A stretch of 64,000 bases of DNA from Alphaproteobacteria bacterium (GCA_047972425.1 JBKEAR010000039.1:20127-84126), one strand, 5' to 3'. Shown: positions 6,340-62,962, numbered from the stretch's first letter. Notes: generated by a model not told the origin, from the letters alone. Translations and numbers: made by a program.

Positions 6340-8217
6340 TTAGTTAATATTATCAATATTTTCGCCCCTTAATGCAGAGCGTATTGTATTATCCATGCGG
6401 CGTTCCGCAAAAAATTTGGTTTGTTCTTCAGCTTTTTCTAAAGCATCTTCAATAGCATCACGGTCATTCCCTTGGCTAGCAATCGCTAGGTTTTGTACAA
6501 CCGTATCCATTTTTTGGCGTTCTTCAGCCGATAACATATTACCATCTACCGAAATAGCCGTATGTATCGCATTAATCACCCGCTCAGCTTCAACACGGCT
6601 TTCGGTCAAAATACGCCATTTCATATCGTCCTGAGCATTTTGTAAGGAAGATTTGAGCATTTGTGTCACTTCTTCTTCCGATAAACCCCAACTTGGTTTT
6701 ACATCAATATGTTGCTCTACACCCGTTGTTTCCTCTTTGGCAAAAACACTTAATAAACCATCGGCATCGACCGAATATGTCACTTGTATCCGTGCGGCAC
6801 CAGCAACCATTGGGGGGATACCGCGTAAAACAAATTGCGCTAAAGAACGGTTTTCGCTCACCATTTCGCGTTCACCTTGCAATACATGGATCATCATAGC
6901 GGTTTGGCCATCTTGAAAAGTTGTAAAATTTTGCGCTTTGGCTACAGGTATTGGTGTATTGCGATGAATAAGCTTTTCGACCATTCCACCCATCGTTTCT
7001 ACACCTAATGATAATGGCAACACATCTAATAACAACATATCAGAGCCTTTGGTTAAACCATGGGCTTGTTGGGCTGCACCAGCTGCCACAACAATATCTG
7101 GGTCAATATCTACCAAAACCGGTGCATTAAATAATGCCCCAACCATTTGGCGCACAAGCTCTTGCCTTGTAGAGCCACCAACCATGACTACACCTTGGAT
7201 ATCATTTTCATCAAGATTGGCATCGGCCAAAACACTGGTACAAATTTTAAGAGTTTTTTCGATGATATTTTTTGAAGCATTATCGACCTGCTCTTTGGTT
7301 AATTTATGTGTTGTTTCAACAGCATTCGGGTCAATTTTCCATTCCCCTATCTCGTGATGAGTGAGGTATTCTTTGGCTTCTTTTGCACATAATTGCGCTT
7401 GGCGAATATCGGTTTTATTAAGCTTTTCATCACCAATTTGTTTTTGCCTATCAGCTAAGATAAGTGCTGCAATTGCATTATCAATATCATCTCCGCCAAG
7501 GGCCGTATTTCCACCGGTTGCTAATACTTGGAAGATACCTTTCTCGAGCCGTAGGATAGAAATATCAAAAGTACCGCCACCAAAGTCGTAAATGGCATAG
7601 ATACCTTCGCTCCCTTTATCGAGCCCATAAGCTAAAGCGGCTGCTGTTGGCTCGTTAACAAGGCGCAAGACATCTAACCCAGCTAAACGGGCGGCATCGC
7701 GGGTGGCTGTTCGGGCAGCGTCATCAAAATAAGCCGGAACCGTAATAACAGCTCGATGAATTTTTTGCTCTAAATGTTCTTCGGCACGTTGTTTAAGCTC
7801 TTTTAAAATATCGGCAGAGACCTGAACCGGAGATAGTAACTTTGTCCCCACATCAATACGTATATCATTATCTTGTATCATCAGTTTTAGCGGCATTGTT
7901 TCTAATACTTTATCACCAGCACCCCGCCCCATTAAGCGTTTAACCGAGCTAACTACAGCATCGGGCTGGCGTAATAAAAGCTGGCTGGCTAACCACCCAA
8001 CAATCGGTTGCCCTTTTGGGGGATAAGCAACGACTGAAGGAATTAAATTGGAGCCACTATTTTCATCAGGAACTATTTGCGCTTTGCCTTCATCATCAAT
8101 CCATGCCACAACCGAATTTGTTGTGCCTAAATCGATACCAATCGCAATATCATCTAAAATTTCTTCATGGGGGTCGGGTGTTTGCCCGGGTTCAAATATT
8201 TGTAATAATTCTGCCAT
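6340..8217 (-). CDS. hscA: Fe-S cluster chaperone HscA (Hsp70 family)
   Basis: 625 aa; Hsp70 signatures ([18 protein letters not shown]); C-terminal lid; located in the isc operon. Confidence 0.9.
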
Positions 8218-8229
8218 ATATCAATCTCG

Positions 8230-8865
8230 TTATAAAGGAAAAGCCATGGGTGTTGCCATGTTCCCCCCTTTTACCTTTGCTATTTTTTCTTTGATTTCTT
8301 GCATAAATCGCCGTTCATACTGAAAGCTTAATATTTCATTTTCTAACGCTGCAATATTTTTTTCGTTATAAAATTTTGAAATATTATTAACGACTTCATC
8401 TTGTTTTTTTTGATTTTTTTGGAGCATCTCATTTAAAGCAGCCTCATCCTTTGCTTGGCCTAATGCCTCGCGCATCATCATAGAAGCCATAAGAATTTGC
8501 GGATTAACGTTTTTTCGGGTTTCGTCCTTATAAGATTCTCCCCCCAAAACAACACATAGATAATCGGCGCGATCTAAAGGTGATTTTAGTAAATTATAGG
8601 CATCATTTACCGCCATTGCTTGTTGAGATGCATACATTTTTTCTTTTGATGTTTTGGTTGCAAAACGATCGGGGTGGAGCAATTTTTGGCGTTCAAAATA
8701 TTGATGATCTAATAATTTAGGGTCAATGATAAAAGCTTCACTTATACCCATTATCTCAAATGGATTAAGCCCAACTAGTGGCTGGACAATATGGCAAGCA
8801 TCGCAAAAAAATGATGCTGGAGCTGTTTGGCTATGGCAGCTCCAACAAATAGCGGTGTTAGACAT
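8230..8865 (-). CDS. hscB: Co-chaperone HscB (J-domain) with N-terminal Cys4 zinc-finger
   Basis: J-domain with HPD (LLHPDRF); N-terminal CWSC...CDAC. Start placed at ATG 8865 (MSNTAICWSC), 3 nt after the iscA stop. The track start at 8919 would overlap iscA by 61 nt. Confidence 0.75.
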   Translation of the reverse strand: MSNTAICWSCHSQTAPASFFCDACHIVQPLVGLNPFEIMGISEAFIIDPKLLDHQYFERQKLLHPDRFATKTSKEKMYASQQAMAVNDAYNLLKSPLDRADYLCVVLGGESYKDETRKNVNPQILMASMMMREALGQAKDEAALNEMLQKNQKKQDEVVNNISKFYNEKNIAALENEILSFQYERRFMQEIKEKIAKVKGGNMATPMAFPL

Positions 8866-9193
8866 GGAAGCTTTCCCCGCAACCACATCTTCCTTTTTCA
8901 TTGGGGTTTTCAAATACAAAGCCCGAGGCTAATTTTTCGGCTTTGTAGTCCATCTCTGTACCAATAACAAACATAATCGCTTTCGGGTCAATAAATACGG
9001 TAACCCCTTTATCGGTAACAACTTCGTCATATTCACCTTGGTCATCGGCATATTCTAATGTATAGCTCATGCCCGAGCATCCGCGAGTTTTAACACCCAC
9101 ACGAATACCAGCAGACTCTTTACCGCGTGCTGCTAATAAGGCCTGAATTTGCTCGGCAGCTGCATTGGATACGGATATGATTGGTTCGGCCAT
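8858..9193 (-). CDS. iscA: Fe-S cluster assembly A-type carrier IscA
   Basis: 111 aa; conserved C..(60 aa)..CGCGESF motif. Confidence 0.85.
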   Translation of the reverse strand: MAEPIISVSNAAAEQIQALLAARGKESAGIRVGVKTRGCSGMSYTLEYADDQGEYDEVVTDKGVTVFIDPKAIMFVIGTEMDYKAEKLASGFVFENPNEKGRCGCGESFHV

Positions 9194-9211
9194 TTTTCCC
9201 CCAAATTGACT

Positions 9212-9595
9212 TTATTTTACTTTTTTCTCTTTATAATTAGAAATTGCAGCTTTAATTGCATCTTCGGCTAAAATAGAACAATGAACTTTTACGGGCGGTA
9301 ATGCAAGCTCTTTAGCAATATCGGTATTTTTAATTTCACCGGCTTCGTTAAGGCTTTTGCCTTTTACCCACTCGGTGATAAGCGATGAAGATGCAATGGC
9401 AGAGCCACAGCCAAATGTTTTAAATTTTGCATCTTCAATAATACCATCTTCGCTCACTTGAATTTGCAAACGCATTACATCGCCACATGCCGGTGCACCA
9501 ACAAGCCCTGTGCCGATATTTTCGGCATTTTCATCCATAGATCCCACATTCCGTGGATTTTCGTAATGATCTAATAATTTTTCGCTATATGCCAT
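9212..9595 (-). CDS. iscU: Fe-S cluster scaffold IscU
   Basis: MAYSEKLLDHYENPRNVGS..GAPACGD..HCS..; AAAGGA RBS. Track ORF trimmed by 19 codons. Confidence 0.9.
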   Translation of the reverse strand: MAYSEKLLDHYENPRNVGSMDENAENIGTGLVGAPACGDVMRLQIQVSEDGIIEDAKFKTFGCGSAIASSSLITEWVKGKSLNEAGEIKNTDIAKELALPPVKVHCSILAEDAIKAAISNYKEKKVK

Positions 9596-9617
9596 TTCTT
9601 TATCCTTTCTATAACTC

Positions 9618-10835
9618 TTAATGATCTGCCCATTGAATTGTTGATAAATCAATGCCAGCTAAATGCATTTCCCAAAGGGGTGAAAGCTCGCGTAAGCGCT
9701 TAACTTCTTTGATTAAACAATCGCATGCATAATCAATTTCCTCTAATGTCGTCCAACGGCCAAAAGACATGCGTAAAGATGAATGCGCCATCTCATCCGA
9801 TACATCAAGTGCAGCCAATACATAAGAAGGCTCTAAACTGGCCGATGTACATGCCGAGCCTGAACTAACGGCAATATCTTTAATCGACATCATTAAACTT
9901 TCGCCCTCAATATAACCAAATGAAATATTTAAGCTATTGGGTAAACGATGCTCTAAAGAACCATTCACATGGATTTCATTAAGCTCTGCATTTAAGCGAT
10001 TAAGCATATGCTCTTGCAAAGCTTTTAGGCGTTTATGTTCAGCTTCCATTTCTTGGTTAGCAAGTTCGGCGGCTTTACCAAGCCCCACAATAAGCGGTGT
10101 GGGTAATGTGCCCGAGCGCATTCCGCGCTCTTGCCCGCCCCCATGGATTTGGGCCAAAATGCGTACCCGTGGGCGACGGCGAACATATAAGGCACCAACC
10201 CCTTTTGGGCCATAAATTTTATGGCCAGAAATTGACATTAAATCGATATTCATATCGTTGACATCAAGCGGAATTTTACCAAAAGCTTGGGCGGCATCGG
10301 TATGAAAGAAAATTCCGTTTTCTTTTGCAATAGCACCAATTTCTTTAATTGGTTGCAGAACACCAATCTCGTTATTTGCAGCCATAACCGATATCACTAA
10401 AGTATCATCGCTAATAGCATCTTTTAACACTTGCAAATCAAGTAAACCATCTTTTTGTACCGGAAGAAAAGTTACACGAAAACCTTCTTCTTCGAGTTGG
10501 CGGCATGTATCGATAATACATTTATGTTCTGTGGCAACAGTGATAATATGTTTTTTTTCGTCACCATAAAATTTAGCTAATCCTTTAAGTGCAAGATTAT
10601 TGCTCTCGGTTGCCCCCGATGTAAAAATAATCTCTTTTGATGAGGCACCAATAACATCCGCAACTTGCACACGTGCTTTTTCTACAGCTTCTTCGGCTTC
10701 CCAACCATAAGGGTGAGAGCGCGAATGCGGATTACCGAATTTTTCGAAAAAATACGGATACATTTCTTTAACAACACGTGGATCAGTTGGCGCAGTTGCT
10801 TGATAATCGAAATAAATTGGGGCTTTTTCTGCCAT
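9618..10835 (-). CDS. iscS: Cysteine desulfurase IscS
   Basis: 405 aa class-V aminotransferase; PLP Lys motif [12 protein letters not shown]; active-site SSGSACTS loop. Confidence 0.9.
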
Positions 10836-10868
10836 GTTAATCTTACCTTATATTTATTGGTTATTAAT

Positions 10869-11354
10869 TTATAATTGTATTTCATACATTCGGTTAACGA
10901 CATCAGCAGCAGAAGAACAACGGGCTGATTCATCATGGTCAAAATTATCGGCACATACATCAGCTAATGTTACCTCATTTAACCATGCATGAATACGGCG
11001 TGTAAGCTCATGCCATAAGCGGTGGGTAACGCAACGCCCTGTACCTGTGCAACCTTCGTCATCATCTTCTTTATGGTCACAACCCATGGCTGTTAAAGGT
11101 TCATCGACCGATAAAATAATATTCGAAATACTAATTTCGTTGGCTTCACGTCCTAAATGATAACCACCACCGGGGCCACGGATAGAGCGAACAAGCTCCT
11201 CGCGGCGTAAACGCGAAAAAAGTTGCTCTAAATAGGAAAGAGAAATCCCTTGCCGGTCGGCGATATCTGAAAGTGATACCGGGCGATCGCCCGAATTTTG
11301 GGCTAAATCTACCATTGCCATTACGGCATATCGGCCGCGTGTACTGAGTTTCAT
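10869..11354 (-). CDS. iscR: Rrf2-family Fe-S regulator IscR
   Basis: 161 aa; Rrf2 wHTH (MKLSTRGRYAV..) plus C-terminal Cys cluster (CDH..GC..GRCVTH); immediately upstream of iscS. Confidence 0.8.
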   Translation of the reverse strand: MKLSTRGRYAVMAMVDLAQNSGDRPVSLSDIADRQGISLSYLEQLFSRLRREELVRSIRGPGGGYHLGREANEISISNIILSVDEPLTAMGCDHKEDDDEGCTGTGRCVTHRLWHELTRRIHAWLNEVTLADVCADNFDHDESARCSSAADVVNRMYEIQL

Positions 11355-56307: not shown

Positions 56308-56946
56308 ATGTATATTAATAAAAAAGAAAAAACCGCTATTTTTATTGATGGCTCTAATTTATATACCACAGCTCGTGTATTGGGTTTTGATTTAGATTAT
56401 CAAAAATTACTTAAATTCTTCCAAAAAGAATGTAATTTGGTGCGTGCTTATTACTATACGGCTTTATTAGAAGGCCAAGATTATTCTCCTTTACGCCCAC
56501 TAGTGGATTGGTTGGATTATAATGGTTATAGCATGACAACAAAATCGGCTAAAGAATATACCGATAGCAATGGTAAAAGCCGAATTAAAGGTTCGGTAGA
56601 CGTGGAACTTGCTGTGGATGTTATGGAAATTGCCGATAAAGTAGATCATATCATTTTATTTTCAGGCGATGGTGACTTTAAGCATTTGATTGCCGCCGTA
56701 CAGCGTAAAGGTGTAAAGGTTACGGTTATTAGTACGGTTCGTTCTCAGCCAGTTATGGCTGCCGATGAATTACGCCGGCAAGCTGATTATTTTGTCGATT
56801 TACTCTCTATAAAAAATATTGTTGCACGCAAAGCATCAGGTAACGCACAAAATGAAAATTCTACAAAAAAAATTGATGAAGAACTCAATGATGAAATTCT
56901 AGCCAATCAAGATTCAGGTATTGATTGGGAAAATGAGTTTGAATAA
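56308..56946 (+). CDS. NYN-domain (LabA-like, PIN-related) protein
   Basis: AIFIDGSNLY..ILFSGDGDF NYN motifs; AGGTGA RBS. Confidence 0.7.
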   Translation: MYINKKEKTAIFIDGSNLYTTARVLGFDLDYQKLLKFFQKECNLVRAYYYTALLEGQDYSPLRPLVDWLDYNGYSMTTKSAKEYTDSNGKSRIKGSVDVELAVDVMEIADKVDHIILFSGDGDFKHLIAAVQRKGVKVTVISTVRSQPVMAADELRRQADYFVDLLSIKNIVARKASGNAQNENSTKKIDEELNDEILANQDSGIDWENEFE

Positions 56947-56966: not shown

Positions 56967-57572
56967 TTGGAAATTATATGCTTAGATATGGAAGGTGTTA
57001 TTGTTCCTGAAATTTGGGTGAATTTTGCCGAAAAAACAGGAATAAAAGAGCTGCGCCTAACGACAAGAGATATTAAAGATTATAATGAGCTTATGGATTA
57101 TCGGTTAAAAATACTTAACCAACATGGATATAAAATAAAAGATATCCAAGATGTTATTGCAACACTTAAACCATTTGATGGTGCAAAAGAATTTTTAGAT
57201 TGGATAAGAGAAAGAACCCAATTGGTTATTCTTTCGGATACATTTAGTGAATTTGCAAAACCATTAATGGTGCAGCTTGGAATGCCAACACTTTTTTGCC
57301 ATGAACTGGAAATTGCCGATGATGGGCAAATCACGGATTATAAATTACGTATGAAGGATCATAAAACCCATGCCACAAGAGCTTTTCAGAGCTTAAATTT
57401 TGATGTTTTTGCCGCAGGTGATTCGTATAATGATACAGGTATGCTAAAGCAGGCTCAAAAAGGTGTTTTATTCCGTGCGCCACAAAATGTTAAAGATGAA
57501 TTTTCTCAATTTAAAACTGCCGAGACTTATGAAGAAATGAAAGATATAATCTCAACATTTTTAGAAAGATAA
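56967..57572 (+). CDS. thrH: HAD-superfamily phosphatase, ThrH-like (phosphoserine phosphatase / homoserine phosphotransferase type)
   Basis: MEIICLDMEGVIVPEIW..ILSDTF..AAGDSYNDTGML closely parallels the Pseudomonas ThrH sequence (recollected from memory). TTG start 9 nt after GGAG. Confidence 0.6.
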   Translation: MEIICLDMEGVIVPEIWVNFAEKTGIKELRLTTRDIKDYNELMDYRLKILNQHGYKIKDIQDVIATLKPFDGAKEFLDWIRERTQLVILSDTFSEFAKPLMVQLGMPTLFCHELEIADDGQITDYKLRMKDHKTHATRAFQSLNFDVFAAGDSYNDTGMLKQAQKGVLFRAPQNVKDEFSQFKTAETYEEMKDIISTFLER

Positions 57573-57578
57573 TCATTT

Positions 57579-58718
57579 ATGGCAAAAGACCCCTATTTGG
57601 AACAAATAAAAAATAAAGCACAAAAGATGGAGCTTTTGTTGCGGTATATACCATATCCGCCTTTAAAAGTTCGTTTATTGCGTTATTACACGCGACTATA
57701 TAATTTTGATAAGGTTTCTGAAATTTTATCGGAAATACCCATTCGCTTTCCTTATAATTCTAACGATCGCTTTCAACTTGCATTTACTTGCTATAAATTG
57801 AACCAATTTAAAAAAGCTAAAGAATTATTACAGCCTTATTTTCCCGATAAAATCAACAGGGAAAAACTGGTATCACCCCATGCAAAAGGATTAAGCCTTA
57901 CGCATAAAGAAAGACTAATTCTTTTAGCCGCTCGGTTTCATATTCAAGAGGTTTATCAAAATAAGGGTATAACTATAGCATCAGATGTATTTAACGATGT
58001 TCAAGATTTGCTGGATAAAGTTATCGTTAAGCGTATTAAAGCAAAAAAACAAACAGATGATAGCCCGAAAACGGCATATATATTAAATTCGTTAAATGAT
58101 TTTATTAAAAATATAAAAAATGCCACTTCGGTCGCTATTATTGGTAATGGGCCAAACTTATTGAATAAAAAGCTTGGCAAAGAGATTGATATGCATGATA
58201 TTATTGTGCGTATGAATTTTTTTCATACCAAAAATTACGAGCAAGATACTGGAATAAAAACGGATATTTGGGTAACAGGTGCAAACGAAGCCTATGTTGA
58301 TAAACAATTAGATCAGACACCCAAAAATATATTATCTATTTTAAAATCATCAGGACTTCAAAATAAAACTACCTTTTTGCCAACAATCGAAAAAATTGAA
58401 GAAAGATTAAGGCAAGCATATACAGATTTTATTACGATACCTGCTGAGCAGCAAACTCTGGCTGAAGTGAAATGTTTAACTGAAACTCCATCAACCGGAA
58501 TGCGCTCTATTAGTTTTATGGTAAATATTTGTAATAAAAATGTCGATTTATACGGGTTTGACTTTTTTAGCACAACAGCGCATCATTATTACGATGTTAA
58601 TCGCCCGCTCGGAAAAGATTTTAAAGATAGAAAAATGTGGTATGTAGGGCATGATTTTTCTTGGGAGGCTATTTATGCACAAATACTAGCTTATCAGAAA
58701 AGAGCAAATATTTTTTAA
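57579..58718 (+). CDS. GT29-like (eukaryotic-type sialyltransferase family) glycosyltransferase, paralogue A, with N-terminal helical domain
   Basis: L-motif VAIIGNGPNL..LGKEIDMHDIIVRMN..YEQDTGIKT; S-motif PSTGMRSISFMVNICNKNVDLYGFDFF; motif III HHYYD; VS GHDFSWE. No signal peptide or TM. Confidence 0.7.
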   Translation: MAKDPYLEQIKNKAQKMELLLRYIPYPPLKVRLLRYYTRLYNFDKVSEILSEIPIRFPYNSNDRFQLAFTCYKLNQFKKAKELLQPYFPDKINREKLVSPHAKGLSLTHKERLILLAARFHIQEVYQNKGITIASDVFNDVQDLLDKVIVKRIKAKKQTDDSPKTAYILNSLNDFIKNIKNATSVAIIGNGPNLLNKKLGKEIDMHDIIVRMNFFHTKNYEQDTGIKTDIWVTGANEAYVDKQLDQTPKNILSILKSSGLQNKTTFLPTIEKIEERLRQAYTDFITIPAEQQTLAEVKCLTETPSTGMRSISFMVNICNKNVDLYGFDFFSTTAHHYYDVNRPLGKDFKDRKMWYVGHDFSWEAIYAQILAYQKRANIF

Positions 58719-58729
58719 GGAATATTCTA

Positions 58730-59803
58730 TTGAGAATAAAAGATAAATTTAAATTTGGTTCTGCATTTTTGCAAAATCGCTTTTTCCCAACCGAAAAAAG
58801 TATTTATCGGGCATCGCAATATTTTGTCAAAACAAATGATGTTAATGGATTTGATAATTTTTTGAGCAAAGTTGATCCGCAATTATTTCATCGAAAAGAG
58901 TTTTATTATACATATTTTTTAATTATGTCTCTTAAACGGAAAAATTTGAGGTTATATCAAAAATTTATTGAGACAAAAAAAAATATCAAAATACCTGAGA
59001 AACAGCATTTTCGTTCTTATCCGTATGATTTATTTTTGGCAGAGCAACGGCAATCTATTATGCAAATAGATACAGTTTCAGAGGCAGCATCTTCTTTTGT
59101 TTATTTACAAAAAAATCAACTTAATGATTTTTATCAAGATATCGTTTCTCACTATACAGTACCAAAAGAATATTTACCTTATGAAAAAAATTATAGGGAA
59201 TTTATTACAAAAATTTCACCCAATACAAAAATTGCCGTTGTGGGGAATGCGCCAAGCTTAAAAGAAAAAAAACTGGGTAAATTTATTGATAGTTTTGATA
59301 TTGTTATTCGGGTTAATAATTATTTAGTTAAAGGTTTTGAAGAATTCACAGGTAAAAAAACCAGTATATGGATGAGTGGTAATACACGCCGATATGAAGA
59401 TGAGAATAATTTACCTAAAATGGATATGCAGGTTATCATTACCCCTTCTTCTTGGTATTTTCGGCGACATGATCATCATGGACATATTAGCCATTTATTT
59501 GAAGGCAATGTGAAAAAAAATGTACCAAACGCTTTAATCCTTCCCTATGCTGTAATGATGAAAAATGAATGTATGGCGTTAATGATGAACCCTACAACGG
59601 GAATGAGAGCCATATTATGGGCATTATCAATGACGGATGAACCTGTAAATATTTTTGGATTTAATTTTTTTCAGGATACAGAAAATATCTATTATTATGG
59701 AAATCAAAATGTTCCTCTTGTGTGGAAAGAACAACATGATCTGGATTGGGAAAGAAAATTTATTGATATTCAGGTTTTCAATAATAAAGTGATTTGGCAT
59801 TAA
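58730..59803 (+). CDS. GT29-like glycosyltransferase, paralogue B
   Basis: IAVVGNAPSL..LGKFIDSFDIVIRVN, PTTGMRAILWAL, NIFGFNFF, YYYG, QHDLDWE. Start set at TTG 58730 (AAGGAA 7 nt upstream, directly after the A stop); the track ATG 58661 would overlap A by 58 nt. Confidence 0.55.
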   Translation: MRIKDKFKFGSAFLQNRFFPTEKSIYRASQYFVKTNDVNGFDNFLSKVDPQLFHRKEFYYTYFLIMSLKRKNLRLYQKFIETKKNIKIPEKQHFRSYPYDLFLAEQRQSIMQIDTVSEAASSFVYLQKNQLNDFYQDIVSHYTVPKEYLPYEKNYREFITKISPNTKIAVVGNAPSLKEKKLGKFIDSFDIVIRVNNYLVKGFEEFTGKKTSIWMSGNTRRYEDENNLPKMDMQVIITPSSWYFRRHDHHGHISHLFEGNVKKNVPNALILPYAVMMKNECMALMMNPTTGMRAILWALSMTDEPVNIFGFNFFQDTENIYYYGNQNVPLVWKEQHDLDWERKFIDIQVFNNKVIWH

Positions 59804-59804
59804 A

Positions 59805-60932
59805 ATGGGCAATAATAAAGAACTTAAAAGTCAATTTTATCATCTAGCATATAAATTAACGAAATCCGATAAATATGCACAAAAGATACTAAAATATTTG
59901 CTGCCATTAAGGGATGAACAGAAAGTATCGGTATTTCTGAATGAGCTAAAACACAAGCAGATGAAAGATCCACAACTTTTATATCATGCAGCCTCTACAA
60001 TGCATCGTATGGGTAAAAAAGAAGATGCTCTATCGATATTGGATAATCACGATGTAGGCAGATATTATGCCGAAGATATTATGGACTTAGATTTTTCTCC
60101 GCGACTTTCGTTATTTTTGCTTTCGGAACGCGTAAAGATTTATAATGATTATATTGATGGTAAAAGAGATAATGCCTCGGTCTATTATATGCATCTTATT
60201 GATACATATATTAAAAAAACTATAAGTGACTTACAACTATTATCACTTAATGATCATCATAATTCGGTTGTAGAAGCCAATAACCATAAATACCAAATTC
60301 TTTCGGTAAAACTTAAACAGCTCTATAACGAGGGTAAAACTTTTGCCATTGTTGGCAATGGGCCATCTTTAAAAAACAAAAATTTCGGCGAGCTGATAGA
60401 TTCCCATGATTATATTATCCGAGTGAATTATTATAACCTGAAGGGTTATGAGCAAGATGTTGGTTCTAAAATTAATTTATGGGCCACAGCTGCGAGCCCT
60501 GCTTATAAAGGATTGCAAAAGGATACTGAGCCAGAGGATATTGTTTGTATTTTAGGCCGTGGAAAATCTGCTAGAAAAAATAATGAATTACAGACAACAA
60601 TTAGCCGGGCTGCTGCGGGTTTAGAGCTAGATGCGAATGACTTTATGATGATGGATCATATCACCCAAATATCTACGGAGTTATATTCCTTATATCGCAC
60701 CCCTTGTACAGGTTTTCGGGCGATTATATGGATAACTCAAATATTAGATATTAAAGCATCAATTTTTGGTTTCGACTTCTTCCAAACAACCAATACACAT
60801 TATTACGATAAAGAAGTAAAAACCCATCAAAAGCATGGGGCCGAAGGTAAATGGTACTCTAACCATGACTTTAAATGGGAAAATTGTTTATGTGATATCC
60901 TTGATTATCAAGGGAGGTTAAAGCGGTATTGA
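59805..60932 (+). CDS. GT29-like glycosyltransferase, paralogue C
   Basis: FAIVGNGPSL..FGELIDSHDYIIRVN..YEQDVGSK, PCTGFRAIIWI, SIFGFDFF, THYYD, NHDFKWE. ATG 2 nt after the B stop. Confidence 0.7.
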   Translation: MGNNKELKSQFYHLAYKLTKSDKYAQKILKYLLPLRDEQKVSVFLNELKHKQMKDPQLLYHAASTMHRMGKKEDALSILDNHDVGRYYAEDIMDLDFSPRLSLFLLSERVKIYNDYIDGKRDNASVYYMHLIDTYIKKTISDLQLLSLNDHHNSVVEANNHKYQILSVKLKQLYNEGKTFAIVGNGPSLKNKNFGELIDSHDYIIRVNYYNLKGYEQDVGSKINLWATAASPAYKGLQKDTEPEDIVCILGRGKSARKNNELQTTISRAAAGLELDANDFMMMDHITQISTELYSLYRTPCTGFRAIIWITQILDIKASIFGFDFFQTTNTHYYDKEVKTHQKHGAEGKWYSNHDFKWENCLCDILDYQGRLKRY

Positions 60933-60934
60933 TA

Positions 60935-62962
60935 TTATCTCAACCGCTTTGGAATACCACCGTTAGCCATGATAGATGTGAGTGTTTCATCTTCATCTAC
61001 ATCATCAAAAATTGTGCGATAAACAAGCAAATTTTCTAAAACATGTTGCACATAACCACGAGTTTCTTCTATCGGGATATTTTCTACCCATTCAATGGCA
61101 TCTACATTTTTCGATCTCGGGTCGCCATAAGTTTTTATCCATTGGTTTGCTCTTCCGGGGCCCGCATTATATGCAACAGCAGCTAATATATAGCTTCCGT
61201 CAAATCGGCTTACTTGGTCAGCCAAGTAATGTGTACCCAAAGTAATGTTATAATCCTTTGTAAATAATTTTGATGTTCCCGACCAACCTAAGCCATATTT
61301 TCCGGCGGTTTCTTTGGCTGTTGCAGGCATTAATTGCATATAACCTTTGGCTCCAGCATGAGAGCCAACATCCATATCAAATGCACTCTCTTGGCGGATA
61401 ATTGCATGTATCAACGATTTCTCTAAGCGTTCATAACCGGCCGAGTTTTTGACAGTTGGTATGGATATTGTTGGGTAAAGCTCACTCATCAACACATAAT
61501 CGCCCGAGCGATCTAATTGCTTTGCCATCGAGAGTGCAGCATCTGGTAGGTCAATAGAACGTGCCCATAAAGCGCAGGATTTTATAACATTAGAGCCCGA
61601 ACCTTCGGGGCAAGCCGATGTTGCAAAGGCACGCGCTTCTCTTGAACGTCCATTTTTTACCAACATTTCGGCAATATTGGCTAATCTATTTTCTCCAGTT
61701 GTTGGGATTGCTAAATATGCATTGCCAATTTTTAATGGTAATGCACGTTCTTCCATAATTTTTTGCGGTACAGAAACCCCTGCCTTACCCGCAGCTAATT
61801 GACCATAATATGTATGGGCAAATTGTGCTCCTTTTTGATACCAAGCTTGGGCTTCGGCTGATTGCCCAGCTTTTTCCATACTACGCCCAGCCCAAAAGGC
61901 ACCCCGGGCACGTTGTGCCGGATTATTTGCTTTGTTATATAAATTGCCAAAATGCTCAGCGGCAATATTTTCCCAGCCATTCACTTTATAAGCTGCACGC
62001 CCTGCAAGCCATTCACCATCTGTAAAGACGGATGAAGAACCATCACTACTCCCATGTGATGCGGCAATTTTTGTAGCCGTTTTATATTTTTTTAGGTTAT
62101 AAGCATCTTTACTGGCTTTTTCTTGCACACGCCACCACATTGTTGTCCAGTCATTCGGCCGGCCAGCATCAAATGCTAAATCAATCGCACCTTGGGTTAG
62201 TCCTTTATTTTGCCGCCAACGGATACGTTCGTATTGCAAACCTTCATTCGATTTTAAATTAGCCGGCACAGCTGCAATAAGTGCATTCACGTTATTACCA
62301 TCATAACGTAATGCAATTCGGGCTTCGGATAATTTTTCCCAATCCTTTGGAACATAAGAATACATACGCCGAGCCTCAGAAGCTGCACCTAAATATAATA
62401 AATTATCCAAACGACGAATATGATCATCTTGTGTCAAATACCCTTTATATCTTCCCAAATAGTCAGCAGCTAATGCGGGTTTAAAGCGACTTAATGCCCA
62501 ACCATCTTTTACTAATTTTGCAAAATTTTCGGGCTTTCCATTTTGTTCTAATGCATGTAAATAATAATACCATCCTTGCCCTGTTGAAGGCACAATGCCG
62601 GCCTGATAAAAATTAACAATATCCGATGCTGGTGTTGCGGATGAGAATGTTTCTTCTATTCGGCGTTTAATTAGGCTGCTATTGGGCCAATAGCGCCAAC
62701 CGGCATTACGGCGGATAAAATTGAGCGCTTCCACATCGTTAATCTCTACATTACTATTGGTTGTTAGGCGTTTCCACCGTAAATAATCCGATACCTCTAA
62801 TTGTCCGGCATTTTGTGCCGCAACAATATGGCTGGGTTCCGGATAATTTTTCCAACCGCTAAAATATGTTTGAACTTGTGCATGAGAAAATGAGCTAAGG
62901 AAAATTGCCGAGCTTAACATCCCGGCTTTTATCGCTGTTGAAAATATGGTATTTTGATTCAT
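60935..62962 (-). CDS. Soluble lytic murein transglycosylase (Slt family)
   Basis: Signal peptide; superhelical N-terminal region; C-terminal SLT domain (ESAFD..GYMQLMP..AYNAGPGR). Confidence 0.8.
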   Translation of the reverse strand: MNQNTIFSTAIKAGMLSSAIFLSSFSHAQVQTYFSGWKNYPEPSHIVAAQNAGQLEVSDYLRWKRLTTNSNVEINDVEALNFIRRNAGWRYWPNSSLIKRRIEETFSSATPASDIVNFYQAGIVPSTGQGWYYYLHALEQNGKPENFAKLVKDGWALSRFKPALAADYLGRYKGYLTQDDHIRRLDNLLYLGAASEARRMYSYVPKDWEKLSEARIALRYDGNNVNALIAAVPANLKSNEGLQYERIRWRQNKGLTQGAIDLAFDAGRPNDWTTMWWRVQEKASKDAYNLKKYKTATKIAASHGSSDGSSSVFTDGEWLAGRAAYKVNGWENIAAEHFGNLYNKANNPAQRARGAFWAGRSMEKAGQSAEAQAWYQKGAQFAHTYYGQLAAGKAGVSVPQKIMEERALPLKIGNAYLAIPTTGENRLANIAEMLVKNGRSREARAFATSACPEGSGSNVIKSCALWARSIDLPDAALSMAKQLDRSGDYVLMSELYPTISIPTVKNSAGYERLEKSLIHAIIRQESAFDMDVGSHAGAKGYMQLMPATAKETAGKYGLGWSGTSKLFTKDYNITLGTHYLADQVSRFDGSYILAAVAYNAGPGRANQWIKTYGDPRSKNVDAIEWVENIPIEETRGYVQHVLENLLVYRTIFDDVDEDETLTSIMANGGIPKRLR

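Follow-up and report, generated by a model that had tools for sequence, protein, structure and literature searches.

Three tandem GT29-like paralogues, apparently cytoplasmic and with divergent, predicted helical N-terminal domains, in an alphaproteobacterial genome

Petit et al. (2018, Sci Rep 8:2946; PMC5811610) have described 23 bacterial sequences of glycosyltransferase family 29 (GT29), 19 of which are alphaproteobacterial and all of which carry the four sialylmotifs. According to these authors, the members of this bacterial class have neither a transmembrane (TM) anchor nor the cysteines of motifs L and S, and the eukaryotic sialyltransferases were proposed to derive from alphaproteobacterial GT29 (Petit et al. 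2018, PMC5811610). A review from 2023 repeats this account without assigning a function to the bacterial enzymes, and the name 'glycosyltransferase family 29 protein' is already used at NCBI, e.g. for proteins of Paracoccus and Thalassobius. The present work concerns three adjacent genes within a stretch of 64,000 nucleotides from an Alphaproteobacteria bacterium (GCA_047972425.1, JBKEAR010000039.1:20127-84126), which is referred to here as the window. These genes are designated A (57579-58718), B (58730-59803) and C (59805-60932); all of them are on the plus strand and they encode proteins of 379, 357 (from a TTG start) and 375 amino acids (aa), respectively. The three proteins belong to the bacterial GT29 group of Petit et al. 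Based on their sequences, and on a structural model of A, we consider it on balance probable that they are soluble cytoplasmic enzymes which transfer an ulosonic acid from its cytidine monophosphate (CMP)-activated form to the precursor of a surface glycoconjugate, and that their helical N-terminal domains serve for paralogue-specific docking to an acceptor or partner.

Sialylmotifs, catalytic fold and solubility

The similarity of A, B and C to the model PF00777 (Glyco_transf_29) lies in each case far above its gathering cut-off of 23 bits, viz. 83.5 bits (E 2.2e-23) for A, 77.3 bits (E 1.7e-21) for B and 72.8 bits (E 3.9e-20) for C; no NCBIfam model covers these proteins as a family. All four sialylmotifs are present in them. 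In A, motif L extends over positions 58125-58259 (plus strand, as for the other motifs; approximately residues 183-227), motif S over 58488-58562 (PSTG ... YGFDF), motif III over 58584-58595 (H-Y-Y-D) and motif VS over 58650-58667, where H358-x4-E363 aligns with the sequence HDGDFE of ST3Gal-I. A motif L of the general form xAxxGNG and a motif S of the form PxTG...GFxFF are found in all three paralogues (viz. IAVVGNA and PTTG..FGFNFF in B, and FAIVGNG and PCTG..FGFDFF in C), and the motif L residues G189, N190, D204, R211 and N213, in the numbering of A, are invariant across them. Motif III is YYYG in B but HYYD in the other two paralogues, and motif VS reads HDFSWE in A, HDLDWE in B and HDFKWE in C. 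In the alignment, the H-x4-E of motif VS and the residues of motif III are kept in all three proteins, as the H/Y and D/G variants of the latter fit the GT29 consensus, which is (H/y)-Y-(Y/W/F/h)-(D/E/q/g) for motif III and H-x4-E for motif VS (PMC8433944). In the GT29 enzymes, which are inverting and metal-independent, the histidine of motif VS is the catalytic base (PMC8433944). Due to the retention of motifs L, S, III and VS, and the confident model of the A fold described below, A, B and C look like intact enzymes. Membership in the Maf/MAF_flag10 family is not supported, as the matches of PF01973 (MptE-like) to B and C reach only 12.9-13.8 bits (E 0.05-0.1) against a cut-off of 34.6 and A shows no match to this model.

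A profile of the family (alignment A2) matches porcine ST3Gal-I (2WNB) with an E value of 9e-20, and this alignment is unbroken from motif L via motifs S, III and VS to the last residue, where '...KRANIF' is paired with the terminal '...KIRIF' of ST3Gal-I. The AlphaFold2 model of A, which is based on an alignment of 89 sequences, has a mean predicted local distance difference test (pLDDT) score of 90.4 and a predicted TM-score (pTM) of 0.89. When this model was used for a Foldseek search, the best 29 PDB matches were all mammalian GT29 structures (E 1e-6 to 5e-4), with ST6GalNAc2, ST3Gal1, ST8Sia3 and ST6Gal1 at the top. As modelled, A thus has the GT-A variant 2 fold of ST3Gal-I. The C-terminus of A (residues 376-378) is modelled as a beta-strand, which is the last strand of the fold, with no free tail. 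The basic C-terminal tails that an earlier note on this DNA had attributed to these proteins are not seen, as the 30 C-terminal residues carry a net charge of +1 in A, -1 in B and 0 in C.

The solubility of the proteins was assessed from Kyte-Doolittle hydropathy in 19-residue windows, with 1.6 as the reference level. The maximum value is 0.63 for A and 1.25 for both B and C, while in the first 70 aa it does not exceed 0.30; no TM segment and no signal-peptide-like h-region was found by this means in any of the three proteins. Further, the position of the eukaryotic motif L cysteine is occupied by valine in A (V185), isoleucine in B and phenylalanine in C, whereas at the position of the motif S cysteine A retains C318, lacking its partner in motif L, and B and C have threonine and leucine, respectively. 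Hence, the earlier note was correct in stating that a signal peptide or hydrophobic N-terminus is missing, that the disulfide cysteines are absent (that of motif S being kept only in A) and that the proteins appear cytosolic. The traits of the eukaryotic Golgi-type enzymes, viz. a type II anchor with a stem and the cysteine pair linking motifs L and S, are absent from A, B and C, and judged by their sequences these proteins look soluble and cytoplasmic.

These absences are, however, a known property of the class and not a peculiarity of this locus, as they were published in 2018 and are common to most of the best 150 representatives in our own searches. When 1.84 billion representatives (clusters at 50% identity, eukaryotes included) were scanned in full with HMMER, 6818 representatives of GT29-like proteins were retrieved at E <= 1e-3; prokaryote-type GT29 is by this measure, which includes the eukaryotic sequences, far larger than the 23 sequences of 2018. 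A word-index search with A found only three near-identical proteins and none that was distant. Among the best 150 of the 6818 representatives, most lack a hydrophobic segment and have valine or isoleucine in place of the cysteine, whereas about nine have a eukaryote-type cysteine and a similar number an N-terminal TM segment. Anchor-less GT29-like proteins are widespread, occurring e.g. in Paracoccus, Thalassobius, Celeribacter, Mesorhizobium and Granulosicoccus.

Many of the homologues among the best 150 are single-domain proteins of 190-250 aa which begin at motif L. When 86 longer representatives were scanned with Pfam, fusions to DUF4422, GT2, GT4 and GT8 were seen, with DUF4422-GT4-GT29, DUF4422-GT8-GT29, GT2-GT29 and TPR-GT29 (TPR, tetratricopeptide repeat) as the recurrent arrangements. 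Elsewhere a GT4 gene overlaps the GT29 gene, and in Granulosicoccus a cluster of GT4, an unassigned gene and GT29 adjoins genes for a nucleoside diphosphate (NDP)-sugar epimerase/dehydratase and a nucleotidyltransferase. These neighbourhoods with GT4 and NDP-sugar genes, together with the fusions to other glycosyltransferases, point to glycan synthesis. Some other observations were made on these homologues. A GT8-GT29 fusion (L033/L034, 10001-11215) lies directly upstream of a GT2 gene on a contig that looks phage- or virus-like, with long runs of co-oriented open reading frames (ORFs) showing no Pfam matches, and a library of viral structures contains GT29 folds from Mimiviridae, herpesviruses, poxviruses and tailed phages. 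Eight proteins of 380-610 aa (P0012, P0013, P0030, P0040, P0043, P0053, P0058 and P0122) carry a second Rossmann-type motif, 'VLILGNG', at residue 4, ahead of the GT29 domain, which may mark a second, degenerate nucleotide-binding or GT29-like domain.

The N-terminal domains and their divergence

The region ahead of motif L, which in the earlier note was put at about 170-185 aa, is indeed of this length, as motif L begins at residue 185 in A, 168 in B (from the short start) and 180 in C. The richness of these N-termini in Lys, Leu and Tyr was also borne out (K 11-12%, L 7-15% and Y 6-8% in A, B and C). In A, the N-terminal domain (positions 57579-58121, plus strand; residues 1-181) is modelled as eight helices in a TPR-like arrangement. 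These helices, as assigned by DSSP, span residues 5-23, 27-39, 43-52, 61-73, 77-87, 109-129, 131-155 and 163-181, and the last of them runs into strand 1 of the catalytic domain. The same helices were obtained when the domain was modelled alone from nine sequences (pLDDT 85). The 50 best PDB matches of this domain in Foldseek are nearly all TPR or TPR-like proteins (viz. BcsC, MamA, BamD, APC/C, PcrH and the TPR of OGT), with E values of 0.06 or worse and TM-scores of about 0.45-0.5 over some 140 residues, none of which is significant. Residues 57-87 of A show sub-threshold matches to the Pfam families TPR_19 and ANAPC3 (E 0.05-0.08), and residues 25-82 of C, which include a hairpin equivalent to that of A, show sub-threshold matches to the LcrH/SycD and HemY-type TPR models of NCBIfam (E 0.07-0.08). 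Of the two properties that the earlier note had predicted for this region, the helical character is thus supported by the model of A, whereas the likeness to TPR proteins is a resemblance in the model at non-significant E values; 'TPR-like' is a reasonable description of the predicted structure and should not be interpreted as demonstrated membership in a family.

Pfam-detectable TPR repeats are present in 3 of the 86 longer homologues, and in two of these (P0089 and P0151) they are located just upstream of the GT29 domain. The same order is seen in an 868-aa Sphingomonadaceae protein (L002), which is the best genome match. However, comparison of the N-terminal domain by hhalign with the TPR region of the 868-aa protein (E 0.17) and with a 374-aa protein of Granulosicoccus gave no significant match. 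A profile of this domain, searched against the 155 collected proteins, had its best matches outside its own clade at E 0.001-0.02, which were judged not significant, and in the full HMMER scan only members of that clade (P0003-P0007) align over this region. At the level of sequence, the N-terminal domain is therefore clade-specific, with no detectable relatives outside a small clade. It is dispensable for the catalytic fold, since many homologues are single-domain proteins which start at motif L. Compared to what was described earlier, the new element is a modest one, viz. a clade-restricted TPR-like N-terminal domain on a bacterial GT29 that is tandemly triplicated within a variable islet.

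The identity between the paralogues is 14-18% in the N-terminal domains in comparison to 28-38% in the catalytic domains, in agreement with the earlier statement that the former are the most divergent part. In profile-profile comparisons, the A-type domain is recognised as a homologue of the C-type domain (P 2.5e-5 over 115 columns, in comparison to 0.85 for the reversed control), while the relationship of the B-type to the C-type domain is marginal (P 0.013). If A is compared with an orthologue of 78% identity from a related metagenome, then the ratio of nonsynonymous to synonymous substitutions (dN/dS) is 0.12 for the N-terminal and 0.10 for the catalytic domain, both values being approximate as dS for this pair is about 1.1. 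Both domains of A are under purifying selection within this orthologue pair. The earlier note had held that conservation of these domains across homologues would speak against their being variable. In this regard, the variability stands for the paralogues, which are divergent and have no detectable counterparts outside the clade, but it does not extend to the orthologue pair, in which the domain is conserved. Divergence between paralogues combined with constraint within orthologues is the pattern to be expected if each paralogue has a stable specificity of its own, and the fact that the N-terminal domains have diverged fastest fits a role in acceptor choice. Further, when 135 catalytic domains were placed in a tree by neighbour joining, the three paralogues grouped with their orthologues to the exclusion of all other sequences, which fits old duplications within the lineage.

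The variable islet and the host organism

The three genes occupy a variable islet of low guanine-plus-cytosine (GC) content (57573-60934) between thrH (56967-57572, plus strand), which flanks it upstream, and the lytic transglycosylase gene slt (60935-62962, minus strand), which converges on it from downstream. A, B and C are co-oriented, with A beginning 6 nucleotides (nt) past thrH and C beginning 1 nt past the stop codon of B. The mechanical ORF of B starts at a TTG at 58661, which is inside A, so that its overlap with the end of A is 58 nt. However, the TTG at 58730 is preceded by AAGGA 8 nt upstream, and in an identical public contig (L001) the gene caller also starts B at this codon, giving 357 aa; it is likely that TTG 58730 is the real start and that the longest-ORF call overstates B by 23 residues. 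We infer that the trio is co-transcribed; a scan of its region for promoters and terminators gave counts at the level of shuffled sequence and is uninformative on the operon. The possibility that thrH supplies the sugar-phosphate phosphatase of a donor pathway was rejected, as this gene is a clear match to the NCBIfam ThrH equivalog (E 4e-94). Directly before thrH and the trio, on the same strand, there is a gene for an NYN-domain (LabA-like) protein (56308-56946), which is probably unrelated to the glycosyltransferases, as its pairing with thrH is kept in relatives that lack the trio.

The GC content of the trio is 32.1% compared to 38.0% for the whole window. In a metagenome-assembled genome (MAG) whose ParC is 86% identical, the gene order slt ... 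thrH-NYN-folK-rpoZ-spoT is the same, but the trio is replaced by a single unrelated ORF of 247 aa (L037, 377-1120; this ORF has a hydrophobic N-terminal stretch). In a second relative (L029, 5602-10372), the corresponding region contains gene A, what is left of B (91 aa), a pair of C-like genes and a 312-aa ORF, in which the DxD-like motif 'VDCDAI' is found. Searches with Pfam and NCBIfam gave no credible family for the 312-aa and 247-aa ORFs, and neither flanking direct repeats nor ends of insertion sequences were found around the islet. Its low GC content and its absence or rearrangement in close relatives mark the trio as a flexible accessory islet, a situation which is usual for surface-glycan genes.

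Based on ParC, which is 86% identical to that of the unclassified 'Alphaproteobacteria bacterium' MAG and 62-65% identical to those of Terasakiella, Thalassospira and Kordiimonas, its nearest named relatives by this measure, the organism is placed within the Alphaproteobacteria. The latter three are free-living marine genera, and nothing in these sequence relationships indicates an obligately host-associated lineage or host dependence. The ORFs of the window were read down to a length of 140 aa in 1-52,900 and down to 80 aa in the remainder. Apart from the islet they look like housekeeping genes, viz. amtB, parE/parC, the isc operon, glnE, mfd, recG, fabH/plsX, glyA and hemB, together with a TRAP transporter, era/rnc/lepB/acpS and spoT/rpoZ. 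Among them no genes for type III, IV or VI secretion systems were seen, nor any flagellar, pilus, S-layer or sugar-pathway genes. A complete iscR-iscS-iscU-hscB-hscA cluster (6340-11354, minus strand) adjoins cysE. Many alphaproteobacteria rely on the Suf system rather than on Isc, and this cluster might help in placing this uncultured lineage of low GC content (38%).

Proposed function, alternatives and known systems

According to the interpretation favoured here, A, B and C would be old tandem paralogues within a bacterial GT29 branch with the sialyltransferase fold (GT-A variant 2), which are active as cytoplasmic enzymes, probably at the inner membrane face. Motifs L and S would bind the CMP-sugar donor, while motifs III and VS would include the catalytic histidine base. 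In the expected reaction a 2-keto-3-deoxy acid sugar, viz. 3-deoxy-D-manno-oct-2-ulosonic acid (Kdo) or a nonulosonic acid (NulO), would be transferred from its CMP-activated form with inversion and without the need for a metal. The N-terminal domain of about 160-180 aa would most plausibly provide each of the enzymes with docking to an acceptor or partner of its own, and the trio may constitute a horizontally mobile glycosylation islet decorating a surface glycoconjugate, e.g. the core of the lipopolysaccharide, the O-antigen or the capsule. The donor sugar, the acceptor and the role of the N-terminal domain are parts of this scheme that we infer.

Several observations weigh against this interpretation. 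The literature that was found contains no biochemical data, donor or acceptor for any bacterial GT29, and the donor is thus extrapolated from the eukaryotic enzymes. Among the window ORFs that were read, genes for a CMP-sugar synthetase, a NulO or Kdo synthase, a flippase or any other glycan function were not seen, and the flanks of the islet are housekeeping genes. The similarity of the N-terminal domain to TPR proteins is purely structural and below significance (E of at least 0.06 in Foldseek and of at least 0.05 in Pfam), and no similarity between the A-type and B-type domains was detectable by profile-profile comparison. Lastly, the structure prediction covers A alone of the three paralogues, and the tree in which they form an exclusive clade carries no bootstrap support.

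If the TPR-like domains bind proteins, then A, B and C could instead be cytoplasmic protein O-glycosyltransferases, in which this domain recognizes a flagellin, pilin, S-layer protein or adhesin and the GT29 domain adds a nonulosonic acid or Kdo. Such enzymes would be functional analogues of FlmG (TPR plus GT-B) and of the Maf proteins; of the alternatives this is the most probable one, although we regard it as unlikely. TPR domains are typically protein-binding, and in FlmG, a flagellin transferase for pseudaminic or legionaminic acid, the TPR region binds flagellin while the glycosyltransferase domain sets the donor specificity (bioRxiv 10.1101/2022.03.25.485807). In the Foldseek search with the full-length model of A, the TPR-plus-glycosyltransferase proteins SPY (SPINDLY) and OGT follow the sialyltransferases with E values of about 1e-3; however, the TM-scores of these matches are just 0.2-0.3, and the similarity to TPR is itself not significant. 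The central domain of Maf has been described as resembling GT29 and GT42, and B and C show weak matches to PF01973, but these are far below the cut-off for this model. The maf genes, too, typically form multi-paralogue families. However, no flagellar, pilus or S-layer genes were seen among the window ORFs that were read, and the other bacterial GT29 proteins, which occur with GT4 or NDP-sugar genes or are fused to glycosyltransferases of the polysaccharide type, suggest that the acceptors are glycans.

A bolder form of the same idea is that A, B and C represent a class of enzymes not recognised so far, in which the GT29 fold serves for the cytoplasmic transfer of an ulosonic acid (Kdo or a nonulosonic acid) to the oxygen of a protein. 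Next to Maf and FlmG, this class would constitute a third design, and it would provide, in an alphaproteobacterium, a living example of the soluble ancestral state that has been proposed for the eukaryotic sialyltransferases. This appears to us doubtful, being somewhat less probable than protein O-glycosylation as such; if it were true, the N-terminal domains would be modules for the recognition of protein acceptors.

It is also conceivable, but quite improbable, that in this lineage the GT29 scaffold is in decay or serves another purpose, so that the proteins are inactive, use another nucleotide sugar or have a binding or regulatory role. The lack of donor-pathway genes nearby and the decayed copy of B in one relative are in accord with this, as are the non-glycosyltransferase chemistry allowed by the related MptE-like fold and the appearance of an archaeal HPPK (8sd5, E 0.015) in the Foldseek list for the model of A. 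However, the four motifs including His-x4-Glu are intact in A, B and C, dN/dS values of about 0.1 indicate a strong constraint on both domains, and full-length ORFs are conserved in relatives.

The earlier note had further suggested secretion as an unfolded effector, and N-terminal domains that serve for recognition during delivery into a host cell if the organism is host-associated. That the proteins are secreted or translocated effectors which glycosylate host-cell targets, with the N-terminal domain as a module for delivery or host recognition and possibly with a type IV signal, is poorly supported and very improbable. The attractions of this reading, viz. the eukaryote-like nature of the enzymes, the low-GC accessory islet, the variable N-termini of the paralogues and the fact that some effectors carry TPR-like repeats, are outweighed by C-termini which are not basic, make up the final strand of the catalytic fold and have precisely the same end point as ST3Gal-I, by the lack of type III, IV or VI secretion genes among the window ORFs that were read, by the ParC relationships of the organism, by the wide occurrence of anchor-less GT29-like proteins across genera, by the existence of a close relative with the same synteny but no trio, and by the consideration that, to our knowledge, donor CMP-sugars are not normally available in the host cytosol outside the nucleus and the Golgi.

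Returning to the soluble glycan-directed enzymes that we favour, the locus offers a compact, expressible set of three soluble, disulfide-free paralogues which have a common catalytic core and differ in their N-terminal domains. The trio thus forms a natural domain-swap series, by means of which it could be asked what the bacterial GT29 enzymes transfer and how the choice of acceptor is encoded in them. Further, a soluble GT29 devoid of disulfides could serve for chemoenzymatic synthesis in E. coli.

In comparison to known systems, A, B and C are closest to the group of Petit et al., with which they have in common the PF00777 domain, the four sialylmotifs, the absence of the anchor and of the motif L and S cysteines, and the mainly alphaproteobacterial distribution. 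However, most bacterial GT29 proteins in databases are either single-domain proteins of about 190-250 aa or fusions with other glycosyltransferases, whereas A, B and C have an additional helical N-terminal domain of 160-180 aa and are triplicated in tandem. With the mammalian enzymes, viz. ST3Gal-I (2WNB), ST6GalNAc-II (6APL), ST8Sia-III (5BO9) and ST6Gal-I (4JS1), they share the fold, the four motifs and the histidine base, but they lack the type II anchor and stem, the conserved disulfide and the secretory-pathway context of mammalian GT29. Their catalytic domain is also smaller (about 200 aa in comparison to about 270 aa), and a helical domain is found in the position of the stem. The architecture of FlmG, OGT and SPINDLY, in which an N-terminal module of helical repeats is followed by a nucleotide-sugar transferase, is similar to that of A, B and C; however, as catalysis in those proteins is of the GT-B type (GT41 or the FlmG type) and here of GT29, this similarity should be interpreted as an analogy of design and not as homology. 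Maf proteins resemble A, B and C in being cytoplasmic and multi-paralogue, and they have a central domain flanked by helical domains and use CMP-NulO or Kdo donors. Unlike Maf, however, A, B and C match PF01973 only far below its cut-off and PF00777 strongly, and they occur in a genetic context without flagellar genes.

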